IMG/VR virus record: IMGVR_UViG_3300045988_070385
From: a virus
Strand: one strand, 5' to 3'
DNA: 28,859 bases
How positions within the stretch are numbered: position 1 is the first letter of the stretch; each line of letters starts with the position of its first letter. Position numbers and translations under genes: made by a program. This document shows positions 1-28,859 of the stretch, piece after piece. The notes under the pieces were generated by a model that worked only from the letters and a program-made list of their open reading frames with translations, was not told the DNA's origin and made no database searches.

Positions 1-55
1 ACGTCGTTGGGGTACTCCGAAGTATTGAGCGTCAAGCACTCGCCATGCCCCCCCC
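1..55. repeat. 55-nt terminal overlap, identical to 28805..28859 (circular closure of the assembly)
   Basis: Window start and end match base for base, and both end with the C8 run. The overlap lies inside a single reading frame (C5-MTase), which points to a circular or permuted molecule rather than a biological terminal repeat. Confidence 0.9.
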
Positions 56-475
56 TCCACCGCGAGCACCCCAGAGTTTTGAAACGGAATTAAGCAATGT
101 TGCAAAGTCTCTGCCACCATTGGAAGAGAGTACACCTGGAACGTTTTCCCAGACAATCCATTCCGGGTCAATTTCTGTGCAAGCTCGGAGATATTCGAGC
201 ATGAGTTGGCCGCGCTGATCATTGAGCCCTTTTCGTTCTCCGGCGATTGAGAACGATTGGCAGGGGCTTCCTCCGACCACAATGTTAGCTGTTCCATGGT
301 ATTTATTCCAATCTACTTTAGTCACGTCTCCCAAATTTGGAATATTGGGGAAGTTTTTTGCTAGGACTTTTGAGGGGGTCTTATCAAATTCGCAGGATGC
401 TATAGGCTCCCAGCCTAATGGCTTCCACGCGACGCTCGCGGCTTCGATACCGCTAAAAAGGCTTATGTATTTCAT
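32..475 (-). CDS. DNA (cytosine-5)-methyltransferase, N-terminal segment (motifs I-VI); frame broken at the G8 tract (48..55 on +)
   Basis: Contains FSGIE (motif I), GGSPCQSFS (motif IV, catalytic PCQ) and WENVPG (motif VI). SD GAAAGGGAAT precedes the ATG at 475. After the G run the frame reads GGGGGMASA-stop, while the +1 frame continues AWRVLDAQYFGVPQRRKR. Confidence 0.85.
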   Translation of the reverse strand: MKYISLFSGIEAASVAWKPLGWEPIASCEFDKTPSKVLAKNFPNIPNLGDVTKVDWNKYHGTANIVVGGSPCQSFSIAGERKGLNDQRGQLMLEYLRACTEIDPEWIVWENVPGVLSSNGGRDFATLLNSVSKLWGARGGGGGMASA

Positions 476-483
476 ATTCCCTT

Positions 484-891
484 TCAGAAGTTTGGTGTGA
501 TTGAGTCCAGAAAATCGTCAAGGTAAAGAATGAAGTCTTCTTGTGTTGAGTCGTGAAGTTGTGGCTGATAATCAGCGTGTAACCATTGAATGCCACTGGA
601 CATTTTCATCCACTTAATACCGGCAAGATACACAAGTATCGTATTGTGGACTTTATCAATCGTCCAGTCTGATGGGGCCACAACATCCATCATGTAACTT
701 TTAGATTGTGCTCCGCTTCTCTGCCGGTTTTCTAAGCCTTTCCATGCTGATAGCCATACTCTGTAGCGTGCTATTTTTTGGTTGTCTTGCACGGTTATTG
801 CGGTTTCGAATATTGCCGTGTCTTTCCCTTTGTCGCATTCCACGACGGAATGCATGTCATATGGTGGGATGTCGTTGAATAGTGTCAACAT
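484..891 (-). CDS. hypothetical protein (135 aa), first gene after hairpin H1
   Basis: Long ORF in the operon orientation with its ATG 21 nt downstream of hairpin H1. No motif recognised. Confidence 0.6.
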   Translation of the reverse strand: MLTLFNDIPPYDMHSVVECDKGKDTAIFETAITVQDNQKIARYRVWLSAWKGLENRQRSGAQSKSYMMDVVAPSDWTIDKVHNTILVYLAGIKWMKMSSGIQWLHADYQPQLHDSTQEDFILYLDDFLDSITPNF

Positions 892-6576: not shown

Positions 6577-6631
6577 ATAGAGCCGGTAAAGCTTTGTCCT
6601 TTTTCTTTACCGGTGGTTGGTTGACTGGATT

Positions 6632-6663
6632 AAGCCCCCGCTGAGCGCTCCTTGCGGGGGCTT
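6632..6663 (+). terminator. GC-rich hairpin between terL and portal (weak terminator candidate)
   Basis: AAGCCCCCGC-12 nt-GCGGGGGCTT followed by only TCC. A TATAAT follows at 6670..6675. Confidence 0.3.
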
Positions 6664-6714
6664 TCCTAGTATAATGGGAACCGTTATCAATAAGCCTATT
6701 GAAAGACGGTAACA

Positions 6715-8850
6715 TTGTCTAAACTCGGATATAAAATCAGAAGTTTCTTCACGCGTCCAACGTCCCCCGCTTTGACTGAAGGGTGGACTAGGGTTAGCGG
6801 CAGTGGAACGCAAGTGATTCCACCGTATGACGCTTACGCGCAGATTTTTCCATATTCGAACGTCATTGCGGGGCGTTTCGCAACTATCATCCCTTATGCG
6901 GTTGATGCTCAGGGTGAGCGTATCAACCCGGCGCCACCGGCGCTCAAAGCATTGTACGCGCCTAATGACCAATTCTCTTGCCTTGAATTCCTGAAATTCA
7001 TCGCCAATAGCATTCTCACCCAGTCCCATCTTGATATCCTGATCTGGACGAATCAAGGCGGCTACATTCAACCGGGAGGCAACATTACCACGGACAATAT
7101 CGCTGGTTATACTTTCCTCCCACAAGATAGCAGACAGTGGGATAGCAGTCACACGACTTGGACGCATCGCGTCACCATGACCATTAACGGACGTTTGGAA
7201 ACCCGCACTTTTACCCGGAATGAGACTATCGCGCTCAGCTATTCCGCTCACCCGCTCGACCCGTCGCGTGGCATAAGTCCCGCGCAGACCATCCGCAAGT
7301 GGGCAAACGTTGACGACATGATAGCGGATTACGAGCGTGGCTTCTTCGCCAACGGTGCCGTCCCAGCGGGCATGATGGGTATCGTATCCGCTACCGCCGA
7401 TGATTTCACCCGCACCAAGAATCAGCTTGAGCAAGCATTCCAGGGAGCCGGACGCAATAACGGCGTGGTCTATAACATGATTCCCGTTGACCCGTTGAGT
7501 GGTAAACCGTCCGATACGGGGAAACTTGTGTGGGTTCCTTTCCAGCAGGCTAATAATTCGCTTGACTTGTCCAGCCTTAACGATGTGGTAAACAATCGAC
7601 TTGCAAGCGCTTTGGCCGTGCCGGATATCGTGCGCGGTATCGATAATGGCCAGACCTATGCTAATGCGGAGCAGGCGGAACGCGCGTTCATTGAAAACAC
7701 GTTGAAACCGTTGTGCATGACGGTGTGGGACAAATTCCAGTTCGAACTTGACCGCATTACCGGCGGACTCGGCTACGGCATTAATTTCACTTTGGACATT
7801 CCTGCGCAAACGGACGTGCGCAAGGTACAGGCCGACACTCAGGCCGTGCAGGTCGAGACCCTTATCAAGCTTATCAATGCTGGGGCGAGCGTGGAAACTG
7901 CTGTGAAGGCGTTGCATTTGCCCGACGAGTTCAATGCGTTGGAGTTGGAGCCTGCCGCACCGTCTCTTTTCGTGAAGCCGGAATCCCCGCAGGTTGTGCC
8001 GCAGATTCAGGCATCGAAAGATGATGACGTTAACACGGAACCGGTGAAACCGGACGTGGAAGAATCAACCGTAAGCAAGGCAACTAAGCTAGTCCGCAAA
8101 TACTATCGTAACTTGATTGACCTTAATCTAGCGGCGCATAGTTTCGCTAAGCCAGAAGTGGACAGTGGGGAGATTCAAGCCGAACTCGTAGACGGCCTTT
8201 TCTCGGTCTATGAGTCGGAAATCGTCGCATACGCGAACTCGACAGGCAAGACGATTATTCAAGCCATGCAGGAATTAGCCAAAACTAATCCAGACATTGC
8301 CAAGATTCTTGACGCTTGGACGCCCTCACAGATTGCCCAACTTGTCGGCTGGGAGACATTGCCGGATACGTTTGAAAAGGCGTACCGCAAGCAACTGACC
8401 AAGACTGTGGCCGCTGTGACGGGTACTGCGAATAAGAGCATTGCCAAGGTTATCTCGCAAGGCATCAAGGATAAGCTAGATTACAAGGAACTTGTACATG
8501 AATTGTACGGATTGCTTGACGATGACCGAGCCGAATTGCTGGCCGGGAACGAGTTGAGGAATGCTGAACGCTTGGGCAATCTCTACAGCGCTCAAAATCT
8601 AAGCAAGAAAACCGGCGTGACCTTGAAAAAGGTCTGGCACACTAGCGGTTTGGATGCCGGTAGCGAGCAGAAGCCGTGCCCATTCTGCGAGCATATGAAC
8701 GGCAAAGTGGTTGGCCTTGCGGAAAGCTTCATGGCCGAAGGTGACTCCATTGATATTGATGGTGAAACCTTCACCAATGACTATATCTCGATGACTACCG
8801 CGGCGGCGCACCCTAGGTGTCGTTGCACACAGACTTACGAGGTGGCTTGA
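6715..8850 (+). CDS. portal protein fused to a MuF/SPP1 gp7-like minor head protein domain
   Basis: The N-terminal ~420 aa has portal-like motifs (ERGFFANGAVPAGMMG, ANAEQAERAFIENTLKPL). The C-terminus has the MuF signature (CPFCEHMNGKVV...AAAHPRCRCTQ). TTG start with GAAAGACGG upstream. Confidence 0.8.
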   Translation: MSKLGYKIRSFFTRPTSPALTEGWTRVSGSGTQVIPPYDAYAQIFPYSNVIAGRFATIIPYAVDAQGERINPAPPALKALYAPNDQFSCLEFLKFIANSILTQSHLDILIWTNQGGYIQPGGNITTDNIAGYTFLPQDSRQWDSSHTTWTHRVTMTINGRLETRTFTRNETIALSYSAHPLDPSRGISPAQTIRKWANVDDMIADYERGFFANGAVPAGMMGIVSATADDFTRTKNQLEQAFQGAGRNNGVVYNMIPVDPLSGKPSDTGKLVWVPFQQANNSLDLSSLNDVVNNRLASALAVPDIVRGIDNGQTYANAEQAERAFIENTLKPLCMTVWDKFQFELDRITGGLGYGINFTLDIPAQTDVRKVQADTQAVQVETLIKLINAGASVETAVKALHLPDEFNALELEPAAPSLFVKPESPQVVPQIQASKDDDVNTEPVKPDVEESTVSKATKLVRKYYRNLIDLNLAAHSFAKPEVDSGEIQAELVDGLFSVYESEIVAYANSTGKTIIQAMQELAKTNPDIAKILDAWTPSQIAQLVGWETLPDTFEKAYRKQLTKTVAAVTGTANKSIAKVISQGIKDKLDYKELVHELYGLLDDDRAELLAGNELRNAERLGNLYSAQNLSKKTGVTLKKVWHTSGLDAGSEQKPCPFCEHMNGKVVGLAESFMAEGDSIDIDGETFTNDYISMTTAAAHPRCRCTQTYEVA

Positions 8851-9051: not shown

Positions 9052-10812
9052 ATGCAACAGACACTCACATGCGACGCGAACACTGTCAGCAGTGACGGCC
9101 ACACGTTGACGTTCCTTGCCAACTCCGGTACGCGCATGACCAATGGCTACACGGTAGACCTTGCAACACTGCAAGCCCCCGTGAACGACGGCCAACTTAA
9201 GCTCGTAACCGACCTGACCGAATCTGACCGACTGACCTTGCCGCTACTGCTCGACCATATGCCGAGCATCACGGCGCAAGTCGGCATCATCGAGAAACTT
9301 TGGTTTGATGATGACGGATTAATGGCTCAGGCTCGACTAAGCGACAATGAGCAAGGCCAGAACGTGCAACAGTTGGCAAGTGAAGGAATGCTAACGAACT
9401 CTTTCAGCATCACAATCGACTTCGACAATGACCCCGACGAAAACGGTGTAATCCATAACGCCGAACTAGTCGAAATCAGCGTGGTCTATCGAGGTGCCGA
9501 CAGTAAAGCCGTATTCCGTAGTCTAAACAATATTGAAGGAAAAATAATGGAACTCAAGAATAATCTCACCAAGGATGAAGCGCAATCCCTGATTGACCAA
9601 ATCACGGACGCTATCAATGGACTGACCGAAAAGAACGACGACAACACCGAGCCAGAAGAGCCGGTACAGTCCAATGAGGCAGAAAATAGCAAGGAGGGTG
9701 ACACCGTGGCTAATGGTCGAACCAATATCATCATCAACAGCGCGGGCGGTGCGCGTCAGTCTCTCGCCAAGACCAGTGACCCGCTGAAGGACTGGCTGAA
9801 GAGCGAGGACGCTACCAAGGCTTACGAGCAGGCGTTGTGGCGTACCGATAATCAGGGTGTGCAGGGCTTTAAGAATGCTTGGCGTGAGGAACTTGCACGC
9901 CACGCCTATGCTGACAATGCTTCTATTGATGAAGCTAGTGTTGGCAAGCTTGTCCCGACAAGCGTTATTACGGAGATTGAAGACGTTCTCAATAAGGCTA
10001 GCGAGCTGTGGCCGCTGTATCGTAAGCTTGATGTGGACAGCTTCACTGTTGGCGCTCAGCTGGCAGGCTTGACCGATGATACTCGCGCTCACGGCTACAA
10101 GGTTGCTGACTATGGTACCTCGAAGAAGACGCAGAAGTTTAATCTTGTGGAACGTAAGCTTGCCGCCGATTTCGTGGTGAAATATGCAGTACTTAACAAG
10201 GGCGATATCCGCCGCACCGACAAGCCCGGCGCACTCGTCAAGTATCTGCTGGCCGAAATGCCGAACTACATTCTGCACGCGATCGACCGTCAGATTATTC
10301 TTGGCGGCTATACCGACCTTGATTTCTTCCGCTCCGTGCAGACCGACGCTAAGGACACTTCCAGCGAGTTCGCGGGGAAGAATTTCGTTCTGAGCGCGGC
10401 CGAGGGTACTCGTGCTAATCTCGTGCTTGATGTGGTTGGCCTTGCATCCAAGATTACCGCCACCGGTACCAAGGTGCTCGTGCTCAGCCCCGATACCAAG
10501 GTGGATATTATCACTGCGGCTGATGGTATTGGCCGTCCGCTCGTCGGCTACGGTAATGATAATCTCGCCGCCTACCTTGGCGTGGATAAGGTTATCACCC
10601 CGGATTGGTGGACTGATGCGGACGACGCTACGACCCGTGCCGTGATTATCGTTCCGGAAGCCTATGGCGTTGTTGGTGACACGTCTATCAGCGCTTTCAC
10701 TAATTTTGCGCTGAAGACTAATGAGCAGGAATACCTGAGTGAAATCTTCGCTGGTGGTGCTCTGACCAAGGTCAAGAGTGCCGGTATTCTGACTCCGAAG
10801 GCTGGCGCCTGA
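9052..10812 (+). CDS. prohead serine protease (HK97/S78-like) fused to a major capsid protein
   Basis: The N-terminal ~165 aa is protease-like (LPLLLDH...QVG, LTNSFSI, EISVVYRGAD). An acidic linker follows, then a ~370-aa HK97-fold-like capsid region. SD AAGGAAAG. A terminator-like hairpin follows the gene. Confidence 0.75.
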   Translation: MQQTLTCDANTVSSDGHTLTFLANSGTRMTNGYTVDLATLQAPVNDGQLKLVTDLTESDRLTLPLLLDHMPSITAQVGIIEKLWFDDDGLMAQARLSDNEQGQNVQQLASEGMLTNSFSITIDFDNDPDENGVIHNAELVEISVVYRGADSKAVFRSLNNIEGKIMELKNNLTKDEAQSLIDQITDAINGLTEKNDDNTEPEEPVQSNEAENSKEGDTVANGRTNIIINSAGGARQSLAKTSDPLKDWLKSEDATKAYEQALWRTDNQGVQGFKNAWREELARHAYADNASIDEASVGKLVPTSVITEIEDVLNKASELWPLYRKLDVDSFTVGAQLAGLTDDTRAHGYKVADYGTSKKTQKFNLVERKLAADFVVKYAVLNKGDIRRTDKPGALVKYLLAEMPNYILHAIDRQIILGGYTDLDFFRSVQTDAKDTSSEFAGKNFVLSAAEGTRANLVLDVVGLASKITATGTKVLVLSPDTKVDIITAADGIGRPLVGYGNDNLAAYLGVDKVITPDWWTDADDATTRAVIIVPEAYGVVGDTSISAFTNFALKTNEQEYLSEIFAGGALTKVKSAGILTPKAGA

Positions 10813-20443: not shown

Positions 20444-20742
20444 TGGGGACGGCTGTTATTTGCGCGATTCTCGGCAGTCAGACGGTGACTATTATCGTGC
20501 AATGGGTGTTGAATAGAATCGATGCGAAACGCAACCCATTACGCGAGGGTGTGAAAGAACTCTTGTTCTGCAAGCTGAAACAGTTTGACGAACAGCGGGA
20601 GCATAACGGTTTCGTGCCCATCGCGGACAAGGAAACAGTCGAACGCGTCTACACAGCCTACCATGCTTTAGGTGGTAATGGTGTGGGCACTGAAATAACT
20701 AACAAGATTCGTACTTGCGCAAGCAGTAGGGAGGGAAAATGA
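20443..20742 (+). CDS. N-terminally membrane-anchored protein adjacent to the lysis cassette
   Basis: One N-terminal hydrophobic span (TAVICAILGSQTVTIIVQWVL). Coupled to the genes on both sides. An alternative start is 20431. Confidence 0.45.
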   Translation: MGTAVICAILGSQTVTIIVQWVLNRIDAKRNPLREGVKELLFCKLKQFDEQREHNGFVPIADKETVERVYTAYHALGGNGVGTEITNKIRTCASSREGK

Positions 20743-21977
20743 AACAAAAGCCGAAACATAAGCGGTTTAAGCGGAGCATGGTCAAGCCGGTTGCCGGTTT
20801 GGCGTTGAGTGCGACTATCATGCTTTCGCCTAGCGTGGCGTTGGCGAACATGAATGGAGTGGACGTGAGCGGATGGCAACCCGCGAACATTACGCGCATC
20901 GTTCCAGGTGACTTCATGATTGTGAAGGCCACGGAGGGTGTGAATTTCACTAACTCTCATTGGGTGAGTCAGATCACGGGTGCGATTGAGACGAATAAGG
21001 TTCATGGCCTGTATCATTATGCGGACGGTGGTAACGCGATTGCGGAAGCCGACTATTTCGTGAACACTATCGGCTCGTATGTTGGCCGTTCCATGCTCGT
21101 GTTGGACTGGGAGAGCTACCGTAACGCGTCATGGGGTAACGGTAATTGGGTTCGCGAGTGGGTTAATCGCGTGCATGATCGTACTAGTGTCTGGCCTGTG
21201 GTTTATGTGCAAGCGTCCGCCGTGTGGCAGATTCCGCAAGACGTGCGCGCCCACTGTATGCTGTGGAAAGCTCAGTATGCGAGCAATGCCGTCACTGGCT
21301 ATCAGTCTCAGCCGTGGAATGCTGGCAGTGCTGGCGAGGGTATGTTGCAATACACGTCTCACGGTATGTTGAGTGGCTATAATGGTTTCCTTGACCTTGA
21401 CTTGTTCTTCGGGGATAAGACCGCTTGGGGTCGGATTGCCTGTGGTGAACGTAGTGGGTGCGTGCCTAATTCGTTCGCTAATACTGGCACCATAACGACG
21501 GTCATGCATGACACACCGAACACCACACCTAACGGTGATGTGAATCAGATGGCGAACGACGTTATCGCGGGCAGATACGGTAATGGCGCGACACGCAAGG
21601 CTTTACTGGGCGGCTATTATGATTCGGTCATGAGGATTGTTAATAATCGTCTTGGATGCGGTACGGCTCAATCCTCTGCGCAATGCGTTTACGTCCAGTC
21701 TGGTGATACGTTGAGTTCGATTGCCTCCCGTTATGGTGGCAGTTGGAATGAGTGGACGGGCTACCGTTCCGGTAATCCGAACATCATTTATGCTGGTGAG
21801 CGTGTTTGCCGTCGCGGGTCTAGCGTTTACACTGGGGGAGCACGTCGTTATACCGTCCGGTCTGGTGACACGTTGAGCGGTATCGCGGCGCGATATAAGA
21901 TTAATGTGAGTCAGATTAAGGGCTATCGTTCGGGTAATCCTAACGTGATTTATCCGGGCGAGACCTTGTATTGGTGA
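20739..21977 (+). CDS. endolysin: signal peptide + GH25 muramidase + two LysM repeats
   Basis: Basic N-terminus, hydrophobic core and VALA-N cleavage-like site. GH25 pattern (GVDVSGWQ..., IVKATEG, GLYHY, LDWE, LWKAQY). Two LysM-like repeats (YVQSGDTLSSIASRYG...; YTVRSGDTLSGIAARY...). Confidence 0.9.
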   Translation: MKQKPKHKRFKRSMVKPVAGLALSATIMLSPSVALANMNGVDVSGWQPANITRIVPGDFMIVKATEGVNFTNSHWVSQITGAIETNKVHGLYHYADGGNAIAEADYFVNTIGSYVGRSMLVLDWESYRNASWGNGNWVREWVNRVHDRTSVWPVVYVQASAVWQIPQDVRAHCMLWKAQYASNAVTGYQSQPWNAGSAGEGMLQYTSHGMLSGYNGFLDLDLFFGDKTAWGRIACGERSGCVPNSFANTGTITTVMHDTPNTTPNGDVNQMANDVIAGRYGNGATRKALLGGYYDSVMRIVNNRLGCGTAQSSAQCVYVQSGDTLSSIASRYGGSWNEWTGYRSGNPNIIYAGERVCRRGSSVYTGGARRYTVRSGDTLSGIAARYKINVSQIKGYRSGNPNVIYPGETLYW

Positions 21978-22341: not shown

Positions 22342-22383
22342 AAGCCGCACGGTTTCCTTTCACCGTGCGGCTTCTCCTTTTTT
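22342..22383 (+). terminator. Rho-independent terminator at the convergence point of the two arms
   Basis: AAGCCGCACGG-10 nt-CCGTGCGGCTT followed by CTCCTTTTTT. Confidence 0.7.
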
Positions 22384-24191: not shown

Positions 24192-24254
24192 TTTATTGTC
24201 CTTCCTTGTTTGGTTGATAATTACATAATACACTATTTGCGGACACGGCACGCC
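24192..24254 (-). promoter_or_regulatory. conserved promoter/5'UTR module, copy E (variant CGGCGTGCCG)
   Basis: Minus strand reads CGGCGTGCCG-N14-GTATTATGTAATTATCAACCAAACAAGGAAGGACAATAAA-ATG. It lies immediately downstream of a U-tract terminator. Confidence 0.55.
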
Positions 24255-24255
24255 G

Positions 24256-24299
24256 AAAATAAAAAAAGGGAACCAACGAAATTCATTCGTAGATTCCCC
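24256..24299 (-). terminator. Rho-independent terminator (minus strand)
   Basis: Minus strand reads GGGGAATCTACGAATGAATTTCGTTGGTTCCC (GGGAA/TTCCC and ACGAA/TTCGT pairings) followed by TTTTTTTATTTT. It starts 6 nt after the stop at 24305. Confidence 0.7.
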
Positions 24300-24304
24300 T
24301 TTTA

Positions 24305-25468: not shown

Positions 25469-25876
25469 TTAGTTTTCCTTCCTTACCGGTAATCCGTCTT
25501 CCGTGGTGGCGAGCATGTATGCTTTCAGCAGTGTGTCCGCTATTTTTTGACGTCGTGCGGGGGGAATACGCCGGAACTTGGTTTCCCAATGCGCGACCTG
25601 ACATTGCCGTACCCCGTACATTTGCGCCATTTCCCTTTGGCTGATACCGAACACGTTGCGTAGATATTTCAACCGTTCGCTATCGTCCAATGAGTCAAGA
25701 TACGTATTCCGATTGTTGACGGTACGCAGGTTATTCTCATGGTCGATGGTGAATAGGTTGCCGTTTTTTGACTGGATCAATTGCGCGTAAATGTCTTCTT
25801 TAATCCTGTATTCTCTGTCCCCGGCGACGGTTTTGAACGTGATGGGCATGGCACCCGGCCATAGCGTGAGTCTCAT
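25469..25876 (-). CDS. XRE-family HTH protein (HTH in the C-terminal half)
   Basis: LRNVFGISQREMAQMYGVRQCQVAHWETKFRRIP matches the Cro/C1-type HTH pattern. AAGAGGA SD and ATGA overlap with the upstream gene. Confidence 0.65.
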   Translation of the reverse strand: MRLTLWPGAMPITFKTVAGDREYRIKEDIYAQLIQSKNGNLFTIDHENNLRTVNNRNTYLDSLDDSERLKYLRNVFGISQREMAQMYGVRQCQVAHWETKFRRIPPARRQKIADTLLKAYMLATTEDGLPVRKEN

Positions 25877-26145
25877 TTATCCTCTTTCTCTTCGTCGTAG
25901 TGGACGTAGGCGATTCCGTTACCAGTTTTGAATTGTCCTCTTACGATGTTTTTGTAAATCGTCGGTTCGATTCCAGCCAAGTAGAGCAAGTCTAGTGCGT
26001 CTTCTCTGGAATTTGGGTAGATTGCGATCTGCGGCGTGTAGTCTTTCAACTCAATGTCCGGCGACTCCGCGGCCACTTCGTCAAGCTGGGCTAGCGTCTC
26101 TCTGAGGAATCTGACGTATTGGCCGAGGGTTATTGTGTCTTTCAT
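25873..26145 (-). CDS. hypothetical protein, 90 aa (first gene after hairpin H3)
   Basis: ATG 26145 is preceded by AAAAGGAATAATA, 21 nt from hairpin H3. The longer ORF-track version runs through the hairpin. Confidence 0.55.
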   Translation of the reverse strand: MKDTITLGQYVRFLRETLAQLDEVAAESPDIELKDYTPQIAIYPNSREDALDLLYLAGIEPTIYKNIVRGQFKTGNGIAYVHYDEEKEDK

Positions 26146-26166
26146 TATTATTCCTTTTCGGTGGGG

Positions 26167-26188
26167 GCCCCGCCCTTGCGGGCGGGGC
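26167..26188 (-). repeat. conserved GC hairpin H3, copy 3 of 4
   Basis: The same 22-nt core as the other copies. It lies 7 nt after the stop at 26196 and 21 nt before the ATG at 26145. Confidence 0.85.
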
Positions 26189-26195
26189 GGGGGGG

Positions 26196-26399
26196 TTATT
26201 CTCCAACGATTTCCGCGAACTTGCCGGTGAGCCACTTGAGATATTCTTTTCTGGTGGCGAATTTGCCGTACGCGTGTGGTGTCTCGCAGTATTCGCCTGT
26301 TGCGTTCTCATTCCACCATGTTTCGACGTCTACCGTGCCGTCCTCGTTGGTGGTGGCCTTGATGTTGTATCCCTTGAAGCAATTGGTTTCGGTGGTCAT
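26196..26399 (-). CDS. cassette small ORF 3, 67-aa hypothetical protein
   Basis: The ATG directly follows module C, and the ORF is followed by hairpin H3. Confidence 0.6.
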   Translation of the reverse strand: MTTETNCFKGYNIKATTNEDGTVDVETWWNENATGEYCETPHAYGKFATRKEYLKWLTGKFAEIVGE

Positions 26400-27532: not shown

Positions 27533-27954
27533 GAACGCGGTAGAATCTCGCCCAACCGACTCAACCCCCGCGCGCTCTCAAGACCACGGAACCGTTTAGC
27601 TGATTGCGCGGACTCTTCCAAACCGCGCCCACTCAACCGTTTCCGCCGATACTCCCAACTCGCCTCACCCTCAATGCCCAGTGCGCGCATTTCACGCGTA
27701 ATGTCGGCTTCGGAAGGCTTATGGTCACGTTTCCATCTGCACCAAAACGCATTGAGATCGGCGGGCATGAGATACGGACGCTTCTTCGCATATTCCGGGC
27801 TTGCGAAAAATTGGCGTATGGCTTCTTTCGCCACGTCCAATCGCATGTCCTGCGCTAACGCTTCCGTCCATGCGGCCACCTGGATATCGGTCACAAGACG
27901 ATTATCAAAAGCGCTGGCATAGGTTAGGAGCGCCTGCACCTGCAACTTGTTCAT
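27511..27954 (-). CDS. hypothetical protein, 147 aa
   Basis: AAGGATGG SD and ATGA overlap with the upstream gene. The C-terminal ...PRSACRTQQ is encoded by promoter-module DNA. No confident motif. Confidence 0.55.
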   Translation of the reverse strand: MNKLQVQALLTYASAFDNRLVTDIQVAAWTEALAQDMRLDVAKEAIRQFFASPEYAKKRPYLMPADLNAFWCRWKRDHKPSEADITREMRALGIEGEASWEYRRKRLSGRGLEESAQSAKRFRGLESARGLSRLGEILPRSACRTQQ

Positions 27955-28364
27955 TTCAATCCATCCTTACATTCCGCTTGCATCATTTTCACGATTCGCA
28001 ACATGTTTTGCAAATCACCTTTACGCAGGTATATCCAGAAAAAGCCTTCACGGTAGGTCACAGCGCGCCTAGCAATATCAAACAGGTTGTCCATGTAGAG
28101 ACAGCACTTCCCCACTTGCATGAGATTGTGCGCGTCCAATGGTTCGCCATCGATTTGCAAGCGGCATTTCTCTCCATTGTCGATAGCCCTCTGTAGATAC
28201 CATTCCGCTTTCTGCAAGTCTTCGAGTGGGCGCCCCTTAAGTCGGTGCCGCCACACGTATTTTATCGCGTTACCTACGCAAAAGCTGTGATATTGCGCGA
28301 CTTCAATGCATTCGCAAGGCTTCGTGTTGTCGGCGTAGTGTGCTGGATGATTGATAGTGTTCAT
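27951..28364 (-). CDS. DUF3310 / SaV-like phage protein
   Basis: The N-terminal INHPAHY...CECIEV...GNAIKYVWRHRLKG...DLQKAEWYL matches the DUF3310 pattern as I recall it. AAGGGAG SD and ATGA overlap with the MTase stop. Confidence 0.55.
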   Translation of the reverse strand: MNTINHPAHYADNTKPCECIEVAQYHSFCVGNAIKYVWRHRLKGRPLEDLQKAEWYLQRAIDNGEKCRLQIDGEPLDAHNLMQVGKCCLYMDNLFDIARRAVTYREGFFWIYLRKGDLQNMLRIVKMMQAECKDGLK

Positions 28365-28852
28365 TTTGCTCCCTTTGATATGGTTTCAATTCTTCTCCCA
28401 AGCCAACGCATAACCGGCACTGCCATGGAATTACCTAACACGCCGATTCGCTCACGGTACCTCAGACAGTCAGTCCATCCAGGCGGGAACCCCTGGAGCG
28501 CTTCGCACTCTTCAGCAGTAAGCCGCCTGAAAGGATACACGCCACCCCAAACGTAGGGCGGGTCATTGCGATTATGGCGAAGCAATGTCGGGCAAGCGTC
28601 GCTCATTGTTGGCGCAGAAGATTGCGTGTCTATGCGGCATTGGACTTTATTACTTCCTGACAAGCGTCCCTCAAGCCTGCTGGCTCGGAGAGCTTCGGCC
28701 TTTTGTCCAGCCTTGCAAGTATCCCCCTGCAAGCTTGCACTGTCATAAAGCACGTTGACGGCACGTCTCCAGTCGTGAGTATTGATGACAAGGAAGATTC
28801 TTTTACGTCGTTGGGGTACTCCGAAGTATTGAGCGTCAAGCACTCGCCATGC
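28361..28852 (-). CDS. DNA (cytosine-5)-methyltransferase, C-terminal segment (motifs VIII-X), continues from 32..475 across the circular junction
   Basis: AWRVLDAQYFGVPQRRKRIFLV (motif VIII), a variable target-recognition region, TAEECEALQGFP (motif IX) and LGNSMAVPVMRWLG (motif X). This frame is +1 relative to the N-terminal segment at the G8 tract (28852..28859, equivalent to 48..55). Confidence 0.85.
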   Translation of the reverse strand, partial: AWRVLDAQYFGVPQRRKRIFLVINTHDWRRAVNVLYDSASLQGDTCKAGQKAEALRASRLEGRLSGSNKVQCRIDTQSSAPTMSDACPTLLRHNRNDPPYVWGGVYPFRRLTAEECEALQGFPPGWTDCLRYRERIGVLGNSMAVPVMRWLGRRIETISKGAK

Positions 28853-28859
28853 CCCCCCC
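28805..28859. repeat. 55-nt terminal overlap, identical to 1..55
   Basis: See the feature at 1..55. Confidence 0.9.

Follow-up and report, generated by a model that had tools for sequence, protein, structure and literature searches.

Is a phage methyltransferase gene that changes frame at a run of guanines the product of a sequencing slip, a gene in decay, a recoded gene, or a switch? This question is raised by the virus record IMGVR_UViG_3300045988_070385 of IMG/VR, a DNA of 28,859 nucleotides (hereafter the window, meaning the whole stretch at its full length), in which a C5 DNA methyltransferase gene on the minus strand is split between two frames at a G8 homopolymer (C8 on the plus strand, 48..55 = 28852..28859). 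With a probability of about 0.7, we read this tract as a contingency locus, hypermutable in length, by which an orphan C5 methyltransferase of the phage is switched, the window carrying an OFF allele. Several lines of evidence, taken together, lead us to favor such a locus over an old pseudogene: the near-identity of ON and OFF alleles, the scatter of tract states on a tree of the relatives, the restoration of the gene when the tract is set to G7, the ratio of non-synonymous to synonymous substitution rates (dN/dS), and the behavior of the other homopolymers of the genome, used as controls.

The N-terminal part of the methyltransferase (32..475, minus strand, 147 amino acids (aa)) contains motifs I, IV, and VI. 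Its open reading frame (ORF) runs from 475 to 32 and ends in ...GARGGGGGMASA-stop, also given as ...LWGARGGGGGMASA-stop (GGGGGMASA), with the TGA at 34..32, and it matches positions 1-132 of the PF00145 profile (E 3.1e-33, 116 bits). The C-terminal part lies in another frame (28361..28851, minus strand, stop at 28363..28361) and encodes, in this order, AWRVLDAQYFGVPQRRKR (motif VIII), the target-recognition (variable) region, RRLTAEECEALQGFP (motif IX), and GNSMAVPV (motif X). It matches the C-terminal end of PF00145 (E 3.1e-12, 47 bits) and is 96% identical to intact relatives, and the ORF called for it by the program begins at a GTG codon at 28843. When the frame is repaired, the whole protein scores 169.8 bits against PF00145 (cut-off 22, E 1.4e-49), which places it in this family, and its motifs stand in the canonical order: FSGIEA (I), GGSPCQSFS (IV), WENVPG (VI), GVPQRRKR (VIII), RRLTAEECEALQGFP (IX), and GNSMAVPV (X). 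Motif I is an SGIEA variant that is common to the homologs, and the motifs align to those of M.HaeIII and M.HhaI (E 1e-22). No close characterized relative of the target-recognition region was found among PDB entries.

What the tract does to the frame was followed in silico. A run of seven or ten Gs gives an intact protein of 305 or 306 aa, respectively; G6 and G9 give products of 215 and 216 aa, and G8 and G11 products of 147 and 148 aa. The repeat thus lies within the ORF and changes in its number of units shift the frame, as in a contingency locus. The sequence-only reading of this DNA had placed both parts of the split methylase and their frames correctly throughout, and its statement that G7 or G10 would give an intact enzyme agrees with the 305- and 306-aa ORFs. 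The tract falls in Gly-Gly-Gly-Gly codons, and these glycines form a four-residue insertion opposite a gap in the alignment with M.HhaI and M.HaeIII, between the helix that follows motif VI and the strand that precedes motif VIII. To judge from this position, the glycine loop should tolerate one Gly more or less. The G8 product, which has the S-adenosylmethionine (AdoMet) and catalytic-Cys motifs and is devoid of motif VIII, the target-recognition region, and motifs IX-X, should be inactive. The tract is the longest homopolymer of the genome, the next longest being one A7 and one G7. However, about 1.4 runs of at least eight are expected in 28.8 kb from base composition, so the presence of the G8 tract alone proves nothing. 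What goes beyond chance is its length polymorphism among relatives and the position at which the contig was cut.

A search with the repaired protein identified relatives that form a tight clade (90-96% identity). Their DNA shows four lengths at the same site, between flanks that are almost identical: G6 in L008; G7 in L005/L006, L009, and L021; G8 in L001/L002, L010/L016, and L017; and G9 in L007 and L022. Comparing tract length in related phages had been proposed by the sequence-only reading, which listed slipped-strand variation as one of three explanations, and the finding of G6, G7, G8, and G9 on near-identical backgrounds supports this explanation. Several of these tract states are given by both Logan and ENA assemblies. 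Among the proteins, an in-frame cluster of 65 distinct sequences (305-309 aa, ...GARGGGGAWRV...) is accompanied by 12 sequences in the G6 register (215 aa, ...GGGGHGECL...), 4 in the G9 register (216 aa, ...GGGGGHGECL...), and 3, including that of the window, in the G8 register (147-150 aa, ...GGGGGMASA). At least 19 distinct sequences are therefore out of frame, against about 65 in frame, and 16 further C-terminal half-ORFs were started by gene callers at an upstream out-of-frame ATG. Distant homologs (~55% identity) have ...ELWPDGGAAWRV... (PDGGA) in place of the GARGGGG loop and contain no G run.

In at least four lineages, no more than one residue (0-1) in the first ~140 aa separates in-frame (ON) from out-of-frame (OFF) alleles. 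P0123 (ON, G7) and P0152 (G9) show no N-terminal difference at all, and P0127 and P0160 are an example of an ON/OFF pair that shares rare substitutions. When the tract state was placed on a neighbor-joining tree of 35 N-terminal sequences, Fitch parsimony required 14 changes, at least nine of them between ON and OFF. Shuffled tract states need 16 changes on average, which means that the tract state is almost uncorrelated with ancestry. Length thus differs among near-identical genomes, with ON and OFF alleles interspersed, as is characteristic of contingency loci. Setting the tract to G7 also gives an ORF of 303-306 aa in the window and in L001/L002, L007, L008, L010, and L017; apart from the allele of L003/L004, all OFF alleles read at the DNA level are otherwise intact. 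Finally, dN/dS between the window and its relatives is 0.09-0.17 in the N-terminal part and 0.14-0.47 over codons 146-250, downstream of the shift, including comparisons of OFF with OFF alleles. These low values downstream of the shift indicate that this half of the gene has been translated for most of its history.

The same observations bear on neutral decay, in which a dispensable methylase would be knocked out repeatedly by slippage and the knock-outs would drift up in frequency without any selected switching. About one fifth of the distinct sequences are out of frame, as decay would have it, and tracts of G7-G9 mutate only moderately fast. In addition, one allele has gone this way: in L003:10001-10930 and L004 synonymous changes break up the tract (GGGGGCGGTGGGG), which leaves it in frame there, and the gene carries two further +G insertions at short downstream G runs (GG to GGG and GGG to GGGG). 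Nevertheless, the tract is the sole lesion in every other OFF allele examined, and OFF states occupy scattered tips of the tree beside ON alleles and form no old clades. Purifying selection acts downstream of the shift even between OFF alleles, and most relatives have kept a pure G run, although synonymous GGN codons could break it. We consider neutral decay unlikely on these grounds, while giving it more weight than any of the other alternatives discussed below.

As a control, the other 15 homopolymers of at least six bases in the window were traced in the relatives. None of those located in genes changes length among the relatives, and the only two that vary, T6 at 22378 and A7 at 24261, are both intergenic.

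Three of these control runs deserve a description of their own. T6 (22378..22383) lies between convergent or divergent genes and is T7 in the relative L001. A7 at 24261 belongs to a region (24230..24300, minus strand) in which a terminator-like hairpin (GGGAATCTACGAA...TTCGTTGGTTCCC) is followed by T7, read as A7 on the plus strand; the run reaches A10 in L003, a case of harmless intergenic slippage. The second-longest G/C run, G7 at 26189..26195 (plus strand), is inside an ORF of the minus strand (25873..26235); substitutions have divided it into runs of 3-4 in relatives, where no change of length is seen.

Several points weigh against a contingency locus. All the evidence comes from metagenome assemblies, and the ENA and Logan assemblies of one run share reads. 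Tracts of G7-G9 are at the short end of those known to phase-vary. The tree rests on ~140 residues with few differences and is weakly resolved, and recombination could spread tract states, yet it cannot create four lengths. The L003/L004 allele, as its sequence reads, is dead and locked, and it shows that the gene can simply die. ON and OFF forms within one population were sought in two pairs and were not demonstrated there: L009 (G7, ON) and L010 (G8, OFF) come from the same IMG metagenome (3300045988), but their C-termini differ, and they are co-occurring strains and not proof of switching within a clone; P0123 and P0152 are from different samples and their DNA is 97% identical. That switching is frequent and reversible within a population, that the enzyme is active, and that the phage benefits is what we infer. 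A dispensable gene with a neutral hotspot of mutation would also account for the data, and selected switching is not proven by the tree, the reversion, the dN/dS values, and the controls.

The position of the tract in the contig is a second feature beyond chance. The first and last 55 bp of the window (1..55, the left copy of the assembler overlap, and 28805..28859, the right copy) are an exact terminal direct repeat, and the two ends share nothing longer than these 55 bp. This makes the contig a 28,804-bp circle with an overlap of k=55. The final eight bases of this overlap are the C8, the last letter of the right copy being the final C of the tract. A circular contig taken from a k=55 de Bruijn graph starts and ends on one vertex, which is arbitrary if the circle is unbranched. 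By chance, the cut would fall exactly on the last C of the tract in about 1 of 28,804 cases; when equivalent coincidences are counted, the odds rise to a few in 10,000. A vertex ending on the eighth C is where a path of C8 followed by T diverges from a path of C9 or longer, and a difference between C7 and C8 would place the branch one base earlier. We infer that some reads in the k=55 assembly had a longer run (G9, which is OFF, or G10, which is ON); these reads may be real variants or homopolymer errors alike. The sequence-only reading had located the tract exactly at the assembly junction and had called this compatible with heterogeneity in its length breaking the assembly graph, or else a coincidence. 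It was right that the contig ends on the last C, although the junction is merely the k=55 overlap of a circle. The cut also fits a branch in the graph, but the geometry fits G8 against G9 or longer and not G8 against G7.

This geometry is one of several observations that speak against a consensus error, in which the true tract would be G7 and the gene intact. The 147-aa product of the window has no record in the assembly index. However, its C-terminal ORF, called separately, is P0137 (246 aa), and this led to assemblies of run ERR912060, a human gut metagenome of project PRJEB9576. A MEGAHIT k127 contig from this run (L018; 28,931 bp, that is, 28,804 + 127) matches the window at 100% identity throughout the 18.2 kb retrieved, as does a Logan contig of 24,466 bp from the same run throughout the 11.6 kb retrieved. 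Such full identity points to the window and the ERR912060 contigs being the same phage population. The k=55, MEGAHIT k127, and Logan assemblies all have G8, and the MEGAHIT and Logan contigs run on across the tract uncut. At least three other samples likewise give G8 as the consensus, and others G6 and G9, while other homopolymers are without such indels. All three assemblies may derive from the same reads, in which case a systematic error would be common to them; moreover, homopolymers are indel-prone in Illumina data, and the contig is cut exactly at the tract, where reads would then have disagreed. A systematic sequencing artefact thus keeps a formal place, and a plain consensus slip at G8, the first of the three explanations offered from the sequence alone, has become improbable, with two other identical assemblies and several samples giving G8.

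If the G8 is genuine, the frame could in principle be corrected during expression. The full enzyme might be made from G8 by a +1 ribosomal frameshift on GGG_GGG_G or by transcriptional slippage, which was the third explanation of the sequence-only reading. On a G run, tRNA-Gly can re-pair perfectly in the +1 frame, and GGAGG, which resembles a Shine-Dalgarno (SD) sequence, stands immediately before the run; an SD-like element stimulates the +1 shift of prfB. RNA polymerase can also slip on long homopolymers, although efficient transcriptional slippage is known on A/T runs of at least nine. The relatives speak against this explanation. G7, which is simply in frame, is the state of most of them, and each of the two out-of-frame registers (G6/G9 and G8) occurs as well; a shift site is thus not conserved, and one mechanism could not rescue every allele. 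A conserved two-frame arrangement with a shift site, as expected for a programmed frameshift or slippage, was not found among them. In addition, the run is followed neither by a slow or stop codon nor by a downstream RNA structure (z +0.86). We regard recoding as very improbable.

Even less credit, indeed almost none, is given to a split enzyme, in which the two halves would be made separately in the G8 state, the C-terminal half from the GTG at 28843, and would reassemble. M.AquI is naturally a two-subunit enzyme, and in other C5 methyltransferases, halves that have been separated can complement one another. In the window, the GTG overlaps the stop of the N-terminal half (GTGCTTGA), and an SD-like, G-rich element (GGAGGGGGGGG) lies 8 nt upstream. 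Yet this GTG/TGA overlap occurs only in the G8 register, the commonest state being one ORF of 305 aa, and the bases concerned encode the conserved AWRVLDA strand, which makes their conservation uninformative. The split would also cut the strand that precedes motif VIII, unlike that of M.AquI, which is in the variable region. An M.AquI-type split was also considered as the general state of the gene and rejected, as the two ORFs are not conserved among the relatives.

Returning to the contingency locus, we propose the following mechanism. Slipped-strand mispairing at the G run during replication of the phage DNA would add or remove Gs. G7 and G10 would keep the frame and give the full enzyme of 305 or 306 aa (ON), whereas G6 or G9 (215- or 216-aa product) and G8 (147-aa product) would be OFF, and revertants to G7 or variants with G10 would restore the enzyme. 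The progeny would then be a mix of methylated and unmethylated phage genomes. The methylated genomes would survive in a host with the cognate restriction enzyme, and the unmethylated ones would escape Type IV restriction that depends on 5-methylcytosine, or would avoid a cost of methylation. By analogy with the agt gene of phage T2, such a pay-off of mixed progeny seems likely. The methylase would presumably serve in anti-restriction. It is possible that a common gut-phage lineage switches its own cytosine methylation in this way, each burst being mixed as a bet-hedge against both types of restriction; we hold this wider proposal tentatively, at somewhat under even odds. The sequence-only reading spoke of a phasevarion. 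This term, which stands for a host regulon under the control of the switch, goes too far: neither such a regulon nor lysogeny is evident and no integrase was detected, and we prefer to speak of a phage contingency locus.

The closest known parallel is the A-run of T2 agt (bases 288-296), which encodes an alpha-glucosyltransferase and was described as a contingency locus, with switching rates and phenotypes measured (Gomez, Barrick & Waters, bioRxiv 10.1101/2025.10.21.683753). In both cases a homopolymer lies in a gene by which the phage modifies its own DNA. A change of one base in either direction switches the modification off and back in T2 and would do so here, and escape from restriction directed at the modified or the unmodified base is the proposed advantage. 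T2, however, a virulent coliphage of large size, has a polymerase of its own, its enzyme glucosylates hydroxymethylcytosine, and its run is of As. The window, in contrast, encodes a C5 methyltransferase with a G run in a small uncultivated gut siphovirus, and the evidence is natural metagenome polymorphism only. A second parallel is bpm of Bordetella phage BPP-1 (L020), which has a G8 at 29922..29929 (gene position 585), the only homopolymer of at least eight in a genome of 42.5 kb. This polyG tract in the BPP-1 methylase was recorded as 'not studied further' (bioRxiv 10.1101/2025.10.21.683753). Like the tract of the window, it is a G8 inside a phage orphan DNA methylase; unlike it, it belongs to an annotated adenine methylase of an unrelated fold class, in a temperate podovirus. 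PolyG tracts of 7-11 with mixed progeny are also described for Campylobacter Fletchervirus phages (Sorensen et al. 2021, Cell Rep 35:109214). These tracts are in receptor-binding protein genes and alter host adsorption, not DNA modification.

In bacteria, phase-variable methyltransferases include Type III mod, Type I hsd, and the polyG-containing Type IIG cj0031 (PMC4889913, PMC4209511). There, too, a simple-sequence repeat in a methyltransferase ORF leads to stochastic ON/OFF methylation. However, these genes are chromosomal and usually part of restriction-modification systems, and their switching reprograms host expression, whereas the gene in the window is a phage orphan without a detected integrase, implies no regulon, and belongs to the C5 family (PF00145), unlike most phasevarion enzymes. 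Phage orphan C5 methyltransferases such as those of Bcep22, ZF40, and Akkermansia phage Chantilly, and the C5 domain of P1 Dmt, show 34-49% identity. This type resembles the gene of the window in its family, in the order SGIEAA...PCQ...ENV...QRR...GNS, and in its position in an early replication and recombination module. We know of no report of a variable G run in methyltransferases of the Bcep22, ZF40, Chantilly, or P1 Dmt type. No report of a phage-encoded phase-variable C5 methyltransferase was found in the literature covered, which is incomplete and leaves most subscription journals outside.

Among bacteria, phase-variable methyltransferases are a textbook strategy. The phage version, acting on the phage's own DNA-modification gene, has only just been shown experimentally, with T2 agt in a 2025 preprint, and the same logic would apply here to an uncultivated and highly prevalent group of gut phages, of which ON and OFF alleles were sampled in many people. 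If our reading is correct, this would be the first evidence from natural populations, in dozens of gut metagenomes, of epigenetic phase variation by a phage, and a directly testable case of epigenetic bet-hedging by phages in the gut. It would also mean that 'frameshifted' phage methylases may be live switches and not pseudogenes or errors, which is a warning to annotators, and that such loci can be flagged by contigs that are cut at a homopolymer.

The surroundings of the gene fit an orphan methylase. Its upstream neighbor (484..891, minus strand, 135 aa), which has the same position in the relatives, is not a recognizable nuclease and has no PHROG or Pfam match. Its downstream neighbor (27951..28364, minus strand, 137 aa) is of the DUF3310 type (PHROG 'nucleotide kinase'/DUF3310; PF11753 in relatives), and the start of this gene overlaps the methylase stop (ATGA). 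A Type II restriction-modification system was considered and set aside, with no nuclease detected beside the methylase by PHROG or Pfam, although an unrecognizable nuclease is possible; the designation as an orphan, made from the sequence alone, holds in this sense. The early module comprises a replication initiator, SSB, RusA, ERF, a YqaJ-type exonuclease, a helix-turn-helix regulator, DUF3310, and the methylase. The genome is that of a small siphovirus, whose other recognizable genes encode a terminase, a portal, a protease-capsid fusion, a tape measure, Sipho_tail/Prophage_tail proteins, and a GH25-CW_7-LysM endolysin. Neither the window nor the gene tables of the relatives yielded an integrase or recombinase, and the contigs are free circles of ~29 kb. 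The phage is thus probably not integrating, although a lysogenic or plasmid-like state is conceivable. With neither a nuclease partner nor an integrase detected, the methylase appears to be an orphan in a probably non-integrating phage.

As for the phage and its host, a 25-kb portion of the window was compared by megablast with 50,697 GenBank phages and gave no match; the phage has no close relative in culture. The large terminase subunit (TerL) is 52% identical to those of Bifidobacterium asteroides phages. The 90%-identity cluster of the endolysin (20739..21977) has 1,360 member sequences, which indicates how widespread phages of this group are in gut metagenomes. A metagenome-assembled genome (MAG) of Acutalibacteraceae has one close endolysin copy in its bin, the next named lysins being from Bifidobacterium (46-48%), and a distant methylase homolog is found in a Clostridium sp. 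CAG:138 MAG. Some restriction-type sites are strongly avoided in the window: GATC (20 observed vs 93 expected), GGNCC (6), GGWCC (2), and CCWGG (11), whereas GCGC (140), CGCG (178), ACGT (140), and CCGG (113) are not. This avoidance suggests that host restriction exerts pressure on the phage. It tells which sites the phage shuns and not which ones it methylates; the target of the methylase may be among the non-avoided sites.

Two observations concern the structural genes. A 436-aa ORF (6607..7917, minus strand) that is antisense to the portal gene (6715..8850, plus strand) is most likely spurious. The capsid gene (9052..10812) appears, from Pfam matches of its syntenic counterpart in relatives, to join a prohead protease (Peptidase_S78) and a major capsid protein (L_lactis_ph-MCP) in a single ORF of 586 aa.

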